Source of the DNA: Escherichia coli
GTDB taxonomy: Bacteria > Pseudomonadota > Gammaproteobacteria > Enterobacterales > Enterobacteriaceae
Length of the DNA: 64,000 nucleotides
Assembly: GCF_051903065.1 (NCBI RefSeq)
Contig: NZ_CP178438.1
Reading direction: 5' to 3' (one strand)
A model generated the notes under the pieces. It saw only the letters and a program-made list of their open reading frames with translations, was not told the DNA's origin and did not search any database. Of the stretch, positions 3,009 through 26,323 are shown piece by piece (the first letter of the stretch is position 1; every line of letters begins with the position of its first letter). The position numbers and the translations under genes were made by a program.

Positions 3009-4136
3009 ATGCAGTGCGCACTTTACGACGCGGGTCGCTGTCGTTCCTGTCAGTGGATAACGCAGCCGATTCCAGAGCAACTCTCCGCTAAAACCGCCGA
3101 TCTTAAAAATCTGCTCGCCGACTTTCCGGTTGAGGAATGGTGCGCGCCGGTGTCAGGCCCGGAACAAGGGTTTCGTAATAAAGCCAAAATGGTGGTGAGT
3201 GGTAGCGTTGAAAAACCACTGCTCGGTATGCTGCATCGCGACGGCACACCGGAAGACCTTTGTGACTGCCCGCTTTATCCTGCCTCATTTGCGCCCGTTT
3301 TTGCGGCGCTAAAACCGTTTATCGCCCGAGCGGGGTTAACGCCCTACAACGTGGCGCGTAAGCGTGGCGAACTGAAATACATTCTGCTGACTGAAAGCCA
3401 GAGCGATGGCGGCATGATGCTGCGCTTTGTACTGCGTTCTGATACCAAGCTGGCGCAACTGCGTAAGGCGCTGCCGTGGTTACACGAACAACTACCGCAG
3501 CTGAAAGTTATTACCGTCAATATTCAGCCGGTACATATGGCGATTATGGAAGGGGAGACGGAGATCTACCTGACCGAACATCAGGCACTGGCAGAGCGTT
3601 TTAATGACGTACCGCTGTGGATCCGTCCGCAAAGTTTCTTCCAGACTAATCCGGCGGTCGCCAGCCAGCTGTACGCTACCGCGCGCGACTGGGTACGACA
3701 ACTGCCGGTTACACATATGTGGGATCTGTTCTGTGGCGTGGGGGGCTTTGGTTTACACTGCGCGACGCCTGACATGCAGTTAACCGGGATCGAAATTGCG
3801 CCAGAGGCCATTGCCTGTGCAAAGCAGTCAGCCGCTGAACTGGGCTTAACGCGTTTGCAATTTCAGGCGCTGGACTCCACTCAGTTTGCCACCGCTCAGG
3901 GGGAGGTGCCGGAGCTGGTGCTGGTTAACCCGCCGCGCCGCGGCATTGGTAAACCGCTGTGTGATTATCTCTCAACGATGGCACCGCGTTTTATCATCTA
4001 CTCCAGCTGTAACGCCCAAACTATGGCGAAAGATATCCGAGAACTGCCTGGTTATCGCATTGAACGGGTGCAGCTTTTCGATATGTTCCCTCACACCGCG
4101 CATTATGAAGTGTTGACGCTGCTGGTAAAAATTTAA
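3009..4136 (+). CDS. rlmC: 23S rRNA (uracil-C5)-methyltransferase RlmC (RumB)
   Basis: 375-aa ORF with N-terminal Cys cluster ([14 protein letters not shown]) and SAM-methyltransferase motifs ([10 protein letters not shown]). Confidence 0.9.
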
Positions 4137-4190
4137 ATACATCACGGCAGTAAATTTTTCGGCAACAACTATTCACTCAAAATAATAATC

Positions 4191-4226
4191 GTGATCGATC
4201 GATTAATAATAACCGATCGATCACGG
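4191..4226. promoter_or_regulatory. Perfect 12-bp inverted repeat (cgtgatcgatcg / cgatcgatcacg) with 12-bp AT-rich spacer and four GATC sites; candidate operator or rlmC terminator
   Basis: Read directly from the sequence in the rlmC-PTS intergenic region. Confidence 0.4.
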
Positions 4227-4433
4227 TTATATATTGCTCTATTTTTGCAAATCAAATCACAAATAATCAAATAAGATCTTTAATTGAACTGTTTTGATTA
4301 CTACAGTGCACTTACCGAATACATACAGAGGCATTGCTTAGCGAAACACAAAATTTCCTGAGACATTATTAACGTCAGCAGAAGGTTCATGCATTGACAA
4401 CGGAAATGTACGCTTATGGAGGGCGTTCCGACG

Positions 4434-5759
4434 ATGTTTGCCAAATTCATAGATGTTATTCAAACGTTTTTAACTGAACCGGCAATTTTAATTGGTTTGC
4501 TGGTGGGTATTGGTTATGCCCTTGATAAGAAATCGCCAATAAAAATTATTACCGGCATGGTCAGCGCCATGGTGGGATTAATGATGGTGTTATTTGGTGG
4601 TTTCCAGTTTTCCGCAACATTTAAACCGGTAGCAGAAGCCGTAAGTAAAGCCTATGGTGTTCACGGATATTTAATGGATTCCTACGCAATGAAAGCGGCA
4701 ACGCAAATTGCACTGGGGGATAATTTTGGTTATGTCGGGTATGTATTTGTACTGGCGTTTTTTACCAACCTGCTGCTGGTATTATTTGGTCGGTATACTG
4801 GTGCCAAAGGGATATTTTTGACAGGGAATACCGGTGTTTCACATTCTCAGGCGGTATTATGGTTGATTGTCTTTTGGCTGGGTTTTAGCTGGACTACATC
4901 CATTATTATTGCCGGAATATTAACGGGTGTATTCTGGGCGTTCTCCACCACGCTCATTGTTAAGCCCATTGCCAAAGTTACCAAAGATGCCGGTTTTACC
5001 ATTGCTCATAACCAGATGTTGGGATTGTGGTTTTTCTCCAAATTCGCCCATAAATTTGGTGACCCTGAAAAGCACGATGCTGAAAACCTGAAACTTCCCG
5101 GGTGGCTGGCGATTTTTAACCATAACGTAACGGCTATCGCCATTGTGATGACGCTGTTTGTCGGTGGTTTCTTGCTATCAACGGGTATCGATAATGTCCA
5201 GTTAATGGCGAAAGGCAAGCCCTGGTACATCTATATCATCAACCTTGGCTTACAGTTCTCCATGTATATGGTCATTCTGCTGCAGGGTGTGCGCATGATG
5301 GTGGGCGAAATTAACGGTTCGTTTAAAGGCTGGCAAGATCGCTTTATTCCTAACGCTATTCCTGCTGTCGATGTTGCAGCGCTGTTACCTTTTTCACCCA
5401 ATGCCGCAACGTTAGGCTTCGTCTTCTGTACTTTTGGCACCATTTTTTCGATGGGGATATTATTACTGGTTCACAGCCCAATTATGGTATTGCCTGGCTT
5501 TGTACCTCTGTTTTTCTCTGGCGGTCCAATTGGCGTATTAGCAAACCGCATGGGCGGATACCGTTCCGTAATTATCTGTACGTTCTTGCTGGGTATTATT
5601 CAGACCTTCGGTACGGTGTGGGCTATTCCGTTAACCGGGCTTGCTGAAAATGGCGTCGGCTGGACAGGAATATTTGACTGGGCAACCGTATGGCCTGCTA
5701 TTTGTGAAGTTCTGAAATTTATCGCTGCAACATTCCATCTTGGTCCTTACGCGGGTTAA
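4434..5759 (+). CDS. PTS system EIIC component, L-ascorbate (UlaA/SgaT) family
   Basis: Multi-TM ORF with clear similarity to UlaA along its length (e.g. KLPGW, VRMxVGE, PGFxPxFFS motifs); start chosen at MFAKF (ORF track begins 4416). Confidence 0.8.
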   Translation: MFAKFIDVIQTFLTEPAILIGLLVGIGYALDKKSPIKIITGMVSAMVGLMMVLFGGFQFSATFKPVAEAVSKAYGVHGYLMDSYAMKAATQIALGDNFGYVGYVFVLAFFTNLLLVLFGRYTGAKGIFLTGNTGVSHSQAVLWLIVFWLGFSWTTSIIIAGILTGVFWAFSTTLIVKPIAKVTKDAGFTIAHNQMLGLWFFSKFAHKFGDPEKHDAENLKLPGWLAIFNHNVTAIAIVMTLFVGGFLLSTGIDNVQLMAKGKPWYIYIINLGLQFSMYMVILLQGVRMMVGEINGSFKGWQDRFIPNAIPAVDVAALLPFSPNAATLGFVFCTFGTIFSMGILLLVHSPIMVLPGFVPLFFSGGPIGVLANRMGGYRSVIICTFLLGIIQTFGTVWAIPLTGLAENGVGWTGIFDWATVWPAICEVLKFIAATFHLGPYAG

Positions 5760-5780
5760 TTAAATATTAAGGGTTTAAAA

Positions 5781-6101
5781 ATGAAAGATACAATTAATAT
5801 TCTGTTTGTCTGTGGTTACGGTGTAGGCAGTAGCGTTATGTTACAAACGGTCGTTAAAAAAGCGCTGACCAAATATGATTTCAAAGTTGAAATGGAACAT
5901 ACCGCCGCAGGTGAAGTCGGCGGGTTTACCGACTGGGCGGATATTTTTGCTATTTCCAAAAAATTACTCGATGTGGTTAGTCTTGACCCGAAACAAGGGC
6001 AATATTTGATTCCGATAGAGAATATTATGGACGGTGAAACTATTGGTCAGCAAATTTATGAAGTGGTTCAGCAACATTTTCCGCATTTAATTAATCAATA
6101 A
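5781..6101 (+). CDS. PTS system EIIB component (ascorbate/galactitol-type)
   Basis: 106-aa ORF with N-terminal phospho-cysteine loop ILFVCGYGVGSS like UlaB; immediately downstream of the EIIC gene. Confidence 0.8.
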   Translation: MKDTINILFVCGYGVGSSVMLQTVVKKALTKYDFKVEMEHTAAGEVGGFTDWADIFAISKKLLDVVSLDPKQGQYLIPIENIMDGETIGQQIYEVVQQHFPHLINQ

Positions 6102-6112
6102 GGTAGGGCGTA

Positions 6113-7594
6113 ATGAGAGCGATTATTCTACTGTTCGATAGTCTGAATAAACGTTATCTGCCACCTTATGGCGATGCGTTAACCAAAGCGCCTAATTTCC
6201 AACGTCTGGCGGCTCATGCCGCCACCTTTGAAAACAGTTACGTCGGCAGTATGCCGTGTATGCCTGCCCGGCGGGAGTTGCATACCGGGCGATGTAACTT
6301 CCTGCATCGGGAGTGGGGGCCGTTAGAACCGTTTGACGACTCCATGCCGGAGCTGCTTAAAAAGGCGGGGATCTATACCCACCTGATAAGCGATCATTTG
6401 CATTACTGGGAAGATGGCGGCGGGAATTATCATAATCGCTACAGTTCGTGGGAGATTGTGCGCGGACAGGAAGGCGATCACTGGCATGCGAGCGTTGCGC
6501 AACCGCCTATTCCCGAGGTGCTACGGGTGCCGCAAAAGCAGACCGGTGGCGGTGTTTCTGGTCTGTGGCGCCATGACTGGGCAAACCGGGAATATATTCA
6601 GCAGGAAGCGGATTTTCCACAAACCAAAGTGTTTGATGCAGGCTGTACCTTTATCCACAAAAATCACGCGGAAGATAACTGGTTATTGCAGGTCGAAACG
6701 TTTGATCCGCACGAGCCGTTTCACACAACGGAAGAGTATCTTTCCTTGTATGAAGATAACTGGGATGGACCGCATTATGACTGGCCGCGTGGCCGGGTGC
6801 AGGAGAGCGACGAGGCCGTGGAGCACATCCGTTGCCGGTATCGTTCGCTGGTGTCGATGTGCGATCGCAACCTGGGGCGCATTCTCGACCTGATGGATGA
6901 GCACGATCTGTGGCGAGATACCATGCTGATTGTCGGCACTGACCACGGCTTTTTACTCGGTGAGCATGGCTGGTGGGCGAAAAACCAGATGCCTTATTAC
7001 AACGAAGTTGCCAATAATCCGTTGTTTATCTGGGACCCGCGCAGTGGTGTAAAAGGAGAGCGGCGACAGGCACTGGTACAAATGATCGACTGGGCGCCAA
7101 CGTTGTATGACTTTTTTCAACAGCCAGTGCCGCCCGATGTGCAGGGGCAACCGCTGGCGAAAACGGTCAGTCACGATGAACCAGTACGCAGCTCGGCGAT
7201 GTTTGGTGTCTTCAGTGGTCATGTTAACGTAACCGATGGGCGTTTTGTCTATATGCGTGCAGCGCTGCCGGGGCGTGAGGATGATATTGCCAACTACACG
7301 TTGATGTCCTGCAAAATGAACAGCCGCTATCCGGTGGATGAGATGCGGGCTTTATCGCTGGCCCCACCGTTTCGTTTTACCAAAGGGTTACAGGTATTAC
7401 GCATCCCGGCACAGGAAAAATATAAGGGGTTGAATCAGTTTGGTCATTTGCTGTTTGATCTGCAAAACGATCCGCAGCAGCTACATCCGATTCATGATGA
7501 TGTGATTGAGTCCCGGATGATCGCGTTGCTGATTCAGTTGATGAAAGATAATGATGCGCCGCCAGAGCAGTTTCAGCGCCTGGGATTAGCGTAG
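6113..7594 (+). CDS. Cys-type sulfatase-like hydrolase (alkaline phosphatase superfamily), predicted cytoplasmic
   Basis: 493-aa ORF; N-terminal IILLFDSL metal-binding motif and sulfatase signature C-M-P-A-R-R-E-L-H-T-G-R; no signal peptide evident. Confidence 0.75.
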   Translation: MRAIILLFDSLNKRYLPPYGDALTKAPNFQRLAAHAATFENSYVGSMPCMPARRELHTGRCNFLHREWGPLEPFDDSMPELLKKAGIYTHLISDHLHYWEDGGGNYHNRYSSWEIVRGQEGDHWHASVAQPPIPEVLRVPQKQTGGGVSGLWRHDWANREYIQQEADFPQTKVFDAGCTFIHKNHAEDNWLLQVETFDPHEPFHTTEEYLSLYEDNWDGPHYDWPRGRVQESDEAVEHIRCRYRSLVSMCDRNLGRILDLMDEHDLWRDTMLIVGTDHGFLLGEHGWWAKNQMPYYNEVANNPLFIWDPRSGVKGERRQALVQMIDWAPTLYDFFQQPVPPDVQGQPLAKTVSHDEPVRSSAMFGVFSGHVNVTDGRFVYMRAALPGREDDIANYTLMSCKMNSRYPVDEMRALSLAPPFRFTKGLQVLRIPAQEKYKGLNQFGHLLFDLQNDPQQLHPIHDDVIESRMIALLIQLMKDNDAPPEQFQRLGLA

Positions 7595-7603
7595 AGAAGT
7601 GAT

Positions 7604-7637
7604 TTTGCCGGAGTGGGTGTTCGCCCACTCCGGCAAA
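7604..7637. terminator. Bidirectional stem-loop terminator between the sulfatase gene and artJ
   Basis: GC-rich hairpin ttgccggagtggg...cccactccggcaa flanked by T/A runs. Confidence 0.55.
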
Positions 7638-7644
7638 TGAATAA

Positions 7645-25169: not shown

Positions 25170-25627
25170 GAAAACCCAGCCCTTGCAAAGAAAGAAGTCG
25201 AAATGCGCGATGACACACTACTGAAAGCGGAAGGACGAGTAAAGTTGCAATTAAAAGGAAATGTTATGCATCAGAGGGGGATTTTTAATTCTATATGAGT
25301 GTTTAGCATTGTTGCGCTCCTTTCATGTGCAATGCCATATAAAGCCACTGGCGCAGGGAGCGCGCAGGGGGCGGCCAGTCGCCGCCGCCCCCTGCCCCCC
25401 CCGGGCTCTGGCGAAAAAAATCGCCGCTGCGCGGTACCTTCAGCTTATCCCCTTCTGCTACCGGGTCGGGCGCGAGGTAACGTCCTGTAAGACGCGCCCT
25501 CAGCCCACATCCATGTGGGCTGCCCCGGCCTTCGGGGAACGCTTCAGCGATTTTGACGCCACCAACACCCGTGCGGTTTGTAACGTCGAAGATAAAACAA
25601 CCAGGGCAGATAAAATGCCAATGCTAA

Positions 25628-26323
25628 TTAATTACGTTTTTCCAGCAGGGTCCGGTAAATCAGACCACCGATAATGCCGCCGACAATTGGCACCACCCAG
25701 AAGAACCACAGTTGTTCTAATGCCCAGCCGCCCTGGAAGATGGCAACCGCGGTGCTGCGCGCCGGGTTAACAGAAGTGTTAGTCACCGGAATACTGATTA
25801 AGTGAATCAGGGTTAAGGCCAGACCAATAGCGATCGGCGCAAAACCTGCCGGAGCGAATTTGTCGGTTGCGCCGTGGATCACCAACAGGAAACCTGCACT
25901 CAATACCAGTTCAACTACCAGCGCGGAAAGCATGGAATAACCGCCTGGTGAATGCTCGCCATAACCGTTAGAAGCAAAACCGCTGGCTGCCGCGTCAAAA
26001 CCCGTTTTACCACTGGCAATTAAATACAGCAGCGCCGCTGCAACAATACCGCCGACAACCTGGGCAATTACGTAGCCAACGACTTCTTTTGCCGGAAAAC
26101 GTCCGCCAGCCCATAAACCAATAGTGACCGCCGGGTTAAAATGACCACCAGAAATATGACCAACAGCGAAGGCCATCGTCAGAACGGTCAAACCGAATGC
26201 CAGCGCCACGCCGGCAAAACCAATGCCTAATTCCGGGAAGCCTGCGGCCAGTACAGCACTACCACAGCCACCAAAAACAAGCCAGAAAGTACCAAAACAT
26301 TCAGCTGCTAATTTTCTGAACAT
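25628..26323 (-). CDS. aqpZ: Aquaporin Z
   Basis: 231 aa from [12 protein letters not shown]; two NPA motifs (HFNPAVT, NPARS). Confidence 0.93.

Follow-up and report, generated by a model that had tools for sequence, protein, structure and literature searches.

The 64-kb stretch of Escherichia coli DNA that we analyzed, referred to here as the window, is 100% identical to E. coli strain 23CRST027. The region of interest has the gene order potGHI-ybjO-rlmC, EIIC, EIIB, and sulfatase, followed by artJ on the opposite strand. A palindromic element lies between rlmC and the EIIC gene. The features of the locus, in window coordinates, are as follows.

3009 to 4136, plus strand: rlmC, upstream of the hairpin on the same strand and the only evident source of plus-strand RNA over it.
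4137 to 4178, plus strand: variable segment from the rlmC stop to the hairpin, which differs between E. coli lineages and has little similarity to the Salmonella segment.
4179 to 4189, plus strand: A-rich flank AAAATAATAAT, which reads as a U-rich tail on the minus strand.
4185 to 4230, plus strand: full 17-pair stem-loop, in which ATAAT and the left arm pair with the right arm and GTTAT.
4190 to 4201, plus strand: left arm CGTGATCGATCG, with GATC starting at 4193 and 4197.
4202 to 4213, plus strand: AT-rich spacer or loop ATTAATAATAAC, in which three inner A-U pairs are possible, giving a 4-nt loop; relatives differ here in sequence and length.
4214 to 4225, plus strand: right arm CGATCGATCACG, with GATC starting at 4215 and 4219.
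4226 to 4235, plus strand: U-rich flank GTTATATATT, an interrupted and weak plus-strand U-tract.
4243 to 4308, plus strand: conserved putative promoter/operator block TTTTTGCAAATCAAATCACAAATAATCA...TTTGATTAYTACAGTG, kept in all six genera that have the cassette and lying outside the palindrome.
4416 to 7594, plus strand: cassette encoding a PTS EIIC of the Gat/Asc type, an EIIB, and a sulfatase.

The cassette and the palindrome co-occur in 566 of 5,426 complete E. coli genomes, every time between rlmC and artJ. The E. coli carriers include O157:H7, O145, and O55:H7, as well as strains with the MS 198-1-type variant, for which “B2” is used here as our own label. Both are also present at the rlmC site in other Escherichia species and in Salmonella, and the cassette was found downstream of rlmC in S. 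enterica subsp. enterica, arizonae, and diarizonae, in other Escherichia, and in an enteric contig (L009). In K-12, which has no cassette, similarity to the window breaks in the last rlmC codons, and the short rlmC-artJ gap holds REP elements and a different hairpin, rich in GC. In Silvania, Leclercia, and a metagenome-assembled genome (L164), the cassette occupies other contexts, with a divergent arylsulfotransferase gene upstream. In Yokenella, a two-component system lies upstream of the cassette on the same strand.

The initial annotation had placed a perfect palindrome within positions 4189 to 4228, about 55 bp past the rlmC stop and about 200 bp before the EIIC start, and had described two overlapping Dam sites in each arm. 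The palindrome is indeed there: CGTGATCGATCG and CGATCGATCACG form a perfect 12-nt inverted repeat with 12 nt between the arms and four GATC sites in total. Each arm does hold two Dam sites, but these abut (GATCGATC) and do not overlap. Both arms and the spacer fall within the annotated range. The rlmC stop ends at 4136 and the palindrome begins 53 nt farther on, and the right arm is 190 nt from the annotated ATG at 4416 and 208 nt from a likelier start at 4434. The annotated EIIC start is probably wrong, judging from an invariant GGAGG at 4418 to 4422 and from the similarity to Silvania, Leclercia, and Yokenella, which starts at residue 7; the likelier ATG at 4434 would give a protein beginning MFAKF.

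A repeat search extended the inverted repeat to 21-nt arms (4185 to 4205 and 4210 to 4230) that are 90% complementary and separated by a 4-nt gap. Because GATC is its own reverse complement, any pair of (GATC)2 blocks forms a direct and an inverted repeat at once, and the independent symmetry of the element comes only from the outer CGT/ACG bases and the AT-rich extension. The predicted RNA fold has a free energy of -27.6 kcal/mol (z = -6.4), and none of 200 shuffles was as stable; the predicted folds of the element span -26 to -27.6 kcal/mol, with z from -6.4 to -7.8. Folds of the minus strand are also stable, because the GATC repeat permits register shifts. By chance, a window should contain 0.1 perfect inverted repeats with arms of 12 nt or more and a loop no longer than 20 nt, and 8% of dinucleotide shuffles contained one; the real window has seven such loci. 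Most of the other six are terminator-like, with GC-rich stems. We also noted a perfect 12-bp GC-rich inverted repeat, GCAGGGGGCGGC...GCCGCCCCCTGC, at 25364 to 25395, which lies inside a 137-aa ORF (25261 to 25674) and has no T-tract on either side.

Covariation was assessed in nine distinct Escherichia and Salmonella variants of the element. In this set, pairing holds at 99.3% of pair positions, and both sides have changed in 7 of the 17 pairs. None of 500 shuffles reached the observed paired fraction or the covariation score, and one of 500 reached seven double-change pairs, while controls in which one partner was slid by 1 to 3 columns gave 16 to 46% pairing. The same helix was predicted by RNAalifold. 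S. enterica subsp. enterica and L009 carry TACAATCAATTG-N11-CAATTGGTTGTA, which contains no GATC and keeps the hairpin. Compared with E. coli, 6 of the 12 arm pairs in this version have changed on both sides, all by G:C to A:U transitions, and the core ATCRATYGAT is common to both versions. All Escherichia retain the GATC sites, as do S. arizonae (arm form CATGATCGATCG...CGATCGATCATG) and S. diarizonae, the latter with a single A.C mismatch. In E. coli KK05-19 (L041, approximately 310 to 322), one 4-bp GATC unit is gone from the left arm and the element still folds, at -21.6 kcal/mol. With this natural slippage variant, the arms behave as a small microsatellite.

Departures from Watson-Crick pairing are few. 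Pair 4189/4226 is U.G in the window strain, Escherichia sp. MOD1, and S. arizonae, and C-G, U-A, or A-U in other relatives; E. coli B2 strains have a single G.U pair at pair 2. In all, there are three G.U states when read on the plus strand (4189/4226, pair 2 in B2, and pair 6 in S. enterica) versus one A.C, an asymmetry that fits pairing in plus-strand RNA and that we treat as suggestive only. The loop varies among relatives in both sequence and length (12 or 11 nt). The flanks are more constant: the core of the A-rich flank, AATAATAA (4181 to 4188; columns 3 to 10 of alignment A4), and the core of the U-rich flank, TTATATAT (4227 to 4234), are invariant in Escherichia and Salmonella. On the evidence of these alignments, the element is conserved as a structure and not as a sequence, with pairing kept and GATC dispensable.

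The block at 4243 to 4308 shows a different pattern. It contains a CRP-like TGCAA-N6-TCACA at 4246 to 4261, of which the half-sites are kept and the N6 is variable, along with AATCAAA/TTTGATT repeats at 4250, 4265, and 4293 and a possible -10 box (TTTAAT) at 4279 to 4284. Conservation of the block in every genus that bears the cassette marks it as a module belonging to the cassette, and it probably serves as the actual promoter and operator of the cassette. The palindrome lies immediately upstream of this block, with its center about 46 bp upstream of the CRP-like site; the element falls outside the module that the cassettes share, about 18 nt from its edge. In the alignment of upstream regions, it is present only where rlmC is upstream, and it is absent from Silvania, Leclercia, and Yokenella despite the common promoter block. 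Fold predictions agree: only in the rlmC context was the promoter block immediately preceded by a strong hairpin, with z of -7 to -8. No hairpin was found upstream of the block in Silvania, Leclercia, or L164, and Yokenella has a separate GC-rich hairpin at the stop of the upstream histidine-kinase gene.

We propose that the element is a selected stem-loop in the 3' flank of rlmC that terminates or protects the transcript and shields the cassette promoter, a reading that we regard as probable, if only just. The structure itself, the changes on both sides of its pairs, its position outside the promoter module, and its absence beside a divergent upstream gene are direct observations. From these we infer that it acts in RNA, by terminating or protecting transcripts. 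An RNA hairpin is the simplest mechanism, since pairing is kept, GATC is dispensable, and the element lies outside the shared promoter. Transcription of rlmC would enter the element, and the hairpin would fold in the RNA. Together with the A-rich and U-rich flanks, it could halt part of this transcription in the manner of a bidirectional factor-independent terminator, and by blocking 3' exonucleases it could fix and stabilize the 3' end of the rlmC mRNA. Constitutive transcription of rlmC would then be kept out of the separately regulated cassette promoter, which lies approximately 20 to 100 nt downstream. The four GATC sites would be a by-product of arms built from (GATC)2 and would not be needed for function.

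The element resembles intrinsic terminators and 3'-protecting stem-loops in several ways. It is a stable hairpin on the transcribed strand soon after a stop codon (53 nt past that of rlmC), it is A-rich upstream and U-rich downstream, its pairing is compensatory, and it lies between a housekeeping gene and a regulated operon that share a strand. A terminator is also supported by the remaining perfect repeats in the window (12 bp or more), which are similarly placed and terminator-like. The differences from intrinsic terminators are a 17-pair stem, which is long for this class and counts against termination, a stem core with only about 58% GC, and an interrupted U-tract (GUUAUAUAUU). The element has T-tract scores of 1.6 (plus strand) and 2.0 (minus strand), versus 3.2 to 4.5 for clear terminators in the window; the tails in S. 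enterica, TTTATATATT and TTTATTATTTTT, are richer by eye. A terminator consensus scan flagged the element on the minus strand only, owing to its way of extending the plus-strand stem across the T.G pair, and the plus strand has no strong tail regardless. The initial annotation had offered three roles for the palindrome, namely an operator for an unlinked regulator, a methylation-sensitive switch, or simply the rlmC terminator stem. The last is the best fit to the conserved pairing and to the position outside the promoter module, but its termination component, given the weak U-tract, is better worded as a possibility.

REP/BIME sequences offer a second comparison. Like them, the element is an imperfect palindrome after a gene, and it occupies the same rlmC-artJ position as the REP in K-12. 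REP elements are thought to stabilize upstream mRNA. Unlike REP/BIME, which are dispersed, multicopy, and built on a GC-rich consensus, the element differs from them in sequence and is single copy across the 5,426 E. coli genomes. We consider the element most likely to be a new instance of an ordinary kind of element, an RNA hairpin that ends or insulates the rlmC transcript.

Several more specific identities were tried and rejected. An ancestral rlmC terminator is contradicted by the unrelated post-rlmC sequences in C. koseri, C. amalonaticus, C. freundii, Kluyvera, and K-12, which lack the cassette. For a minus-strand small-RNA terminator, we found no downstream minus-strand promoter and no Rfam support. 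The best Rfam match, STnc550, scored 19.6 bits against a threshold of 48 and was absent at the Salmonella locus, which argues against a known RNA family. A remnant of the two-component system or of other neighboring sequence was rejected, since the junction segment had no significant similarity to the other contexts. A literature search by locus tag (STM0884 to STM0886) and by topic found no report on this element or on its transcript 3' ends.

Alternatively, the element may be a neutral quasi-palindrome that a rearrangement left behind at its junction. Its arms would arise by (GATC)n slippage, template switching would copy changes from one arm to the other, and no function would be served. 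We consider this unlikely, though likelier than the other alternatives. Template-switch mutation can keep palindromes symmetric in the absence of selection, and the arms are tetranucleotide repeats with the natural slippage variant in KK05-19. The rlmC-artJ gap is moreover a hot spot for rearrangement, with REP in K-12, the two-component system in C. koseri and Kluyvera, and that system together with the cassette in Yokenella; the element sits beyond the edge of the shared cassette module, and its terminator features are weak. However, the 17-pair stem survived the divergence of Escherichia and Salmonella while the adjacent 40 to 50 nt diverged to little similarity. Copying from arm to arm also leaves the invariant A-rich and U-rich flanks unexplained, and the tolerance of wobble intermediates fits selection on RNA pairing.

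The palindrome could also be the place where an unlinked dimeric transcription factor binds, as its operator or activator site, to control the PTS-sulfatase operon. The presence of a perfect dyad close to a promoter, in front of a cassette with no linked regulator, invites this interpretation, as does the core ATCRATYGAT, which both E. coli and S. enterica retain. TCGGCA-16-AATAAT (4159 to 4186), a weak sigma-70-like match, would put the palindrome just past a transcription start, but the -35 of this putative promoter is not conserved in Salmonella. The half-sites fare poorly: in S. enterica, 6 of the 12 half-site positions have changed next to a promoter block that is 100% identical. The spacer can be 12 or 11 nt long, and one variant has lost 4 bp. 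In addition, three genera that share the promoter (Silvania, Leclercia, and Yokenella) lack the element. With neither half-sites nor spacing conserved, we disfavor an operator and rate it as improbable.

BLAST of the 56-bp element against the 5,426 E. coli genomes, which cannot see isolated half-sites of 10 to 12 bp, found no other genomic place; the two places reported per genome are the self-match of the element on both strands. In a pattern scan of metagenomes, the only enteric-like locus among the matches listed was this one, and the other matches were (GATC)n microsatellites and unrelated high-GC contigs. With only the same locus given by BLAST and, among the enteric matches listed, by the pattern scan, a repeat family was rejected and a regulon appears unlikely.

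The four Dam sites raise the question of a methylation-sensitive switch of the agn43/gtr/opvAB type, in which OxyR or another protein competes with Dam and gives rise to ON and OFF lineages of the cassette. The element resembles the OxyR/Dam switches (agn43, and gtr and opvAB in Salmonella) in its clustered GATC sites, AT-rich region, and dyad symmetry, and it is the sole cluster of four GATC within 40 bp in the window. The words ATCGATCGAT...TAATAATAACC are common to the element and to the OxyR/Dam region of K-12 agn43; 7 of 2,000 shuffles scored as high in this comparison, which was chosen post hoc. The 37-mer OxyR consensus (ATAGnTnnnAnCTAT-N7-ATAGnTnnnAnCTAT) is matched at 12 of 20 specified positions, versus 14 of 20 at agn43. 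This places the element in the top 0.08% of window positions (48 of approximately 64,000 reach 12), in an AT-rich context that inflates such scores.

The geometry does not fit, however. The start-to-start GATC spacings in the element are 4, 18, 22, and 26 bp, with no GATC-N9-GATC, whereas the OxyR/Dam half-sites in gtr have GATC pairs 13 bp apart, at -110/-97 and -46/-33 (PMC2909390), and the agn43 GATC sites at 437 and 450 are likewise 13 bp apart. The best 15-nt half-site in the element matches at 7 of 10 positions, versus 8 of 10 that we computed for agn43 and the 9 to 10 of 10 reported for gtr (PMC2909390). The GATC sites retained in Escherichia, S. arizonae, and S. diarizonae are lost in S. 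enterica subsp. enterica and L009, where the hairpin is kept with zero GATC, and there is no overlap between the element and the conserved promoter. A literature search yielded neither methylome data for the locus nor any report of undermethylation or phase variation there. Thus, the hairpin without GATC in S. enterica subsp. enterica and the mismatch in GATC spacing lead us to consider a methylation switch very unlikely, and an OxyR/Dam switch in particular was rejected on GATC spacing and half-site matches, although the words shared with agn43 are real. A more restricted proposal, which strikes us as a slightly longer shot still, is that in Escherichia and not in S. enterica subsp. enterica the hairpin DNA was co-opted as a Dam-sensitive site, possibly for OxyR in view of the words shared with agn43. 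In lineages like O157:H7 and B2, GATC methylation would then set heritable ON and OFF states of the horizontally acquired cassette for a sulfated-sugar PTS and a sulfatase.

The main value of assigning the palindrome to an RNA hairpin downstream of rlmC is clarity of annotation. Four GATC sites in a palindrome readily suggest epigenetic control or an operator; what the relatives keep is its pairing and not its GATC. Regulatory work on the sulfatase-PTS cassette in O157:H7, B2, and Salmonella is directed instead to the block at 4243 to 4308. If the element does insulate the cassette, it would be an example of an acquired operon shielded from an upstream housekeeping gene.

Several observations concern the history of the cassette and its surroundings. 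The nearest relatives of its EIIC outside the enterics are in Firmicutes, at about 70% amino acid identity, which suggests that the cassette was acquired horizontally. In Neobacillus niacini (L018, 47 to 6185), with an EIIC about 69% identical, a PRD regulator, an FGE sulfatase maturase, and an EIIA lie beside EIIC-EIIB-sulfatase. The enteric cassette has no EIIA, regulator, or maturase and so must depend on unlinked genes. In Salmonella Typhimurium LT2, a sigma-54 binding site, CGGCACGATTTTTTCCAT, within the ORF of STM0884, the EIIC ortholog, is listed in a ChIP-chip study (PMC3844500).

The rlmC-artJ gap (4137 to 7640 in the window versus 2147 to 2344 in K-12 L002) is a hot spot of gene content. 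Its occupants are REP elements in K-12 and the cassette in Salmonella and approximately 10% of E. coli genomes; some Citrobacter and Kluyvera have a two-component system there, and C. freundii has other genes. The two-component system consists of an OmpR-type response regulator and a histidine kinase, found between rlmC and artJ in C. koseri (L166, 3761 to 5921) and Kluyvera (L169, 4053 to 6128). Orthologs of both proteins, at 68 to 91% amino acid identity, lie directly upstream of the cassette in Yokenella (L014, 499 to 2690). We speculate that this system may be the cognate regulator of the cassette and that it was lost in E. coli and Salmonella.

Within E. coli, positions 4146 to 4178 of the window differ sharply between lineages (the window type versus the O157 and B2 types), and both flanks are near-identical, a pattern that suggests a recombination boundary. 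In E. coli PT62 (L042), EIIC is annotated in RefSeq as a pseudogene with an internal stop, which suggests that the cassette is decaying in some lineages.
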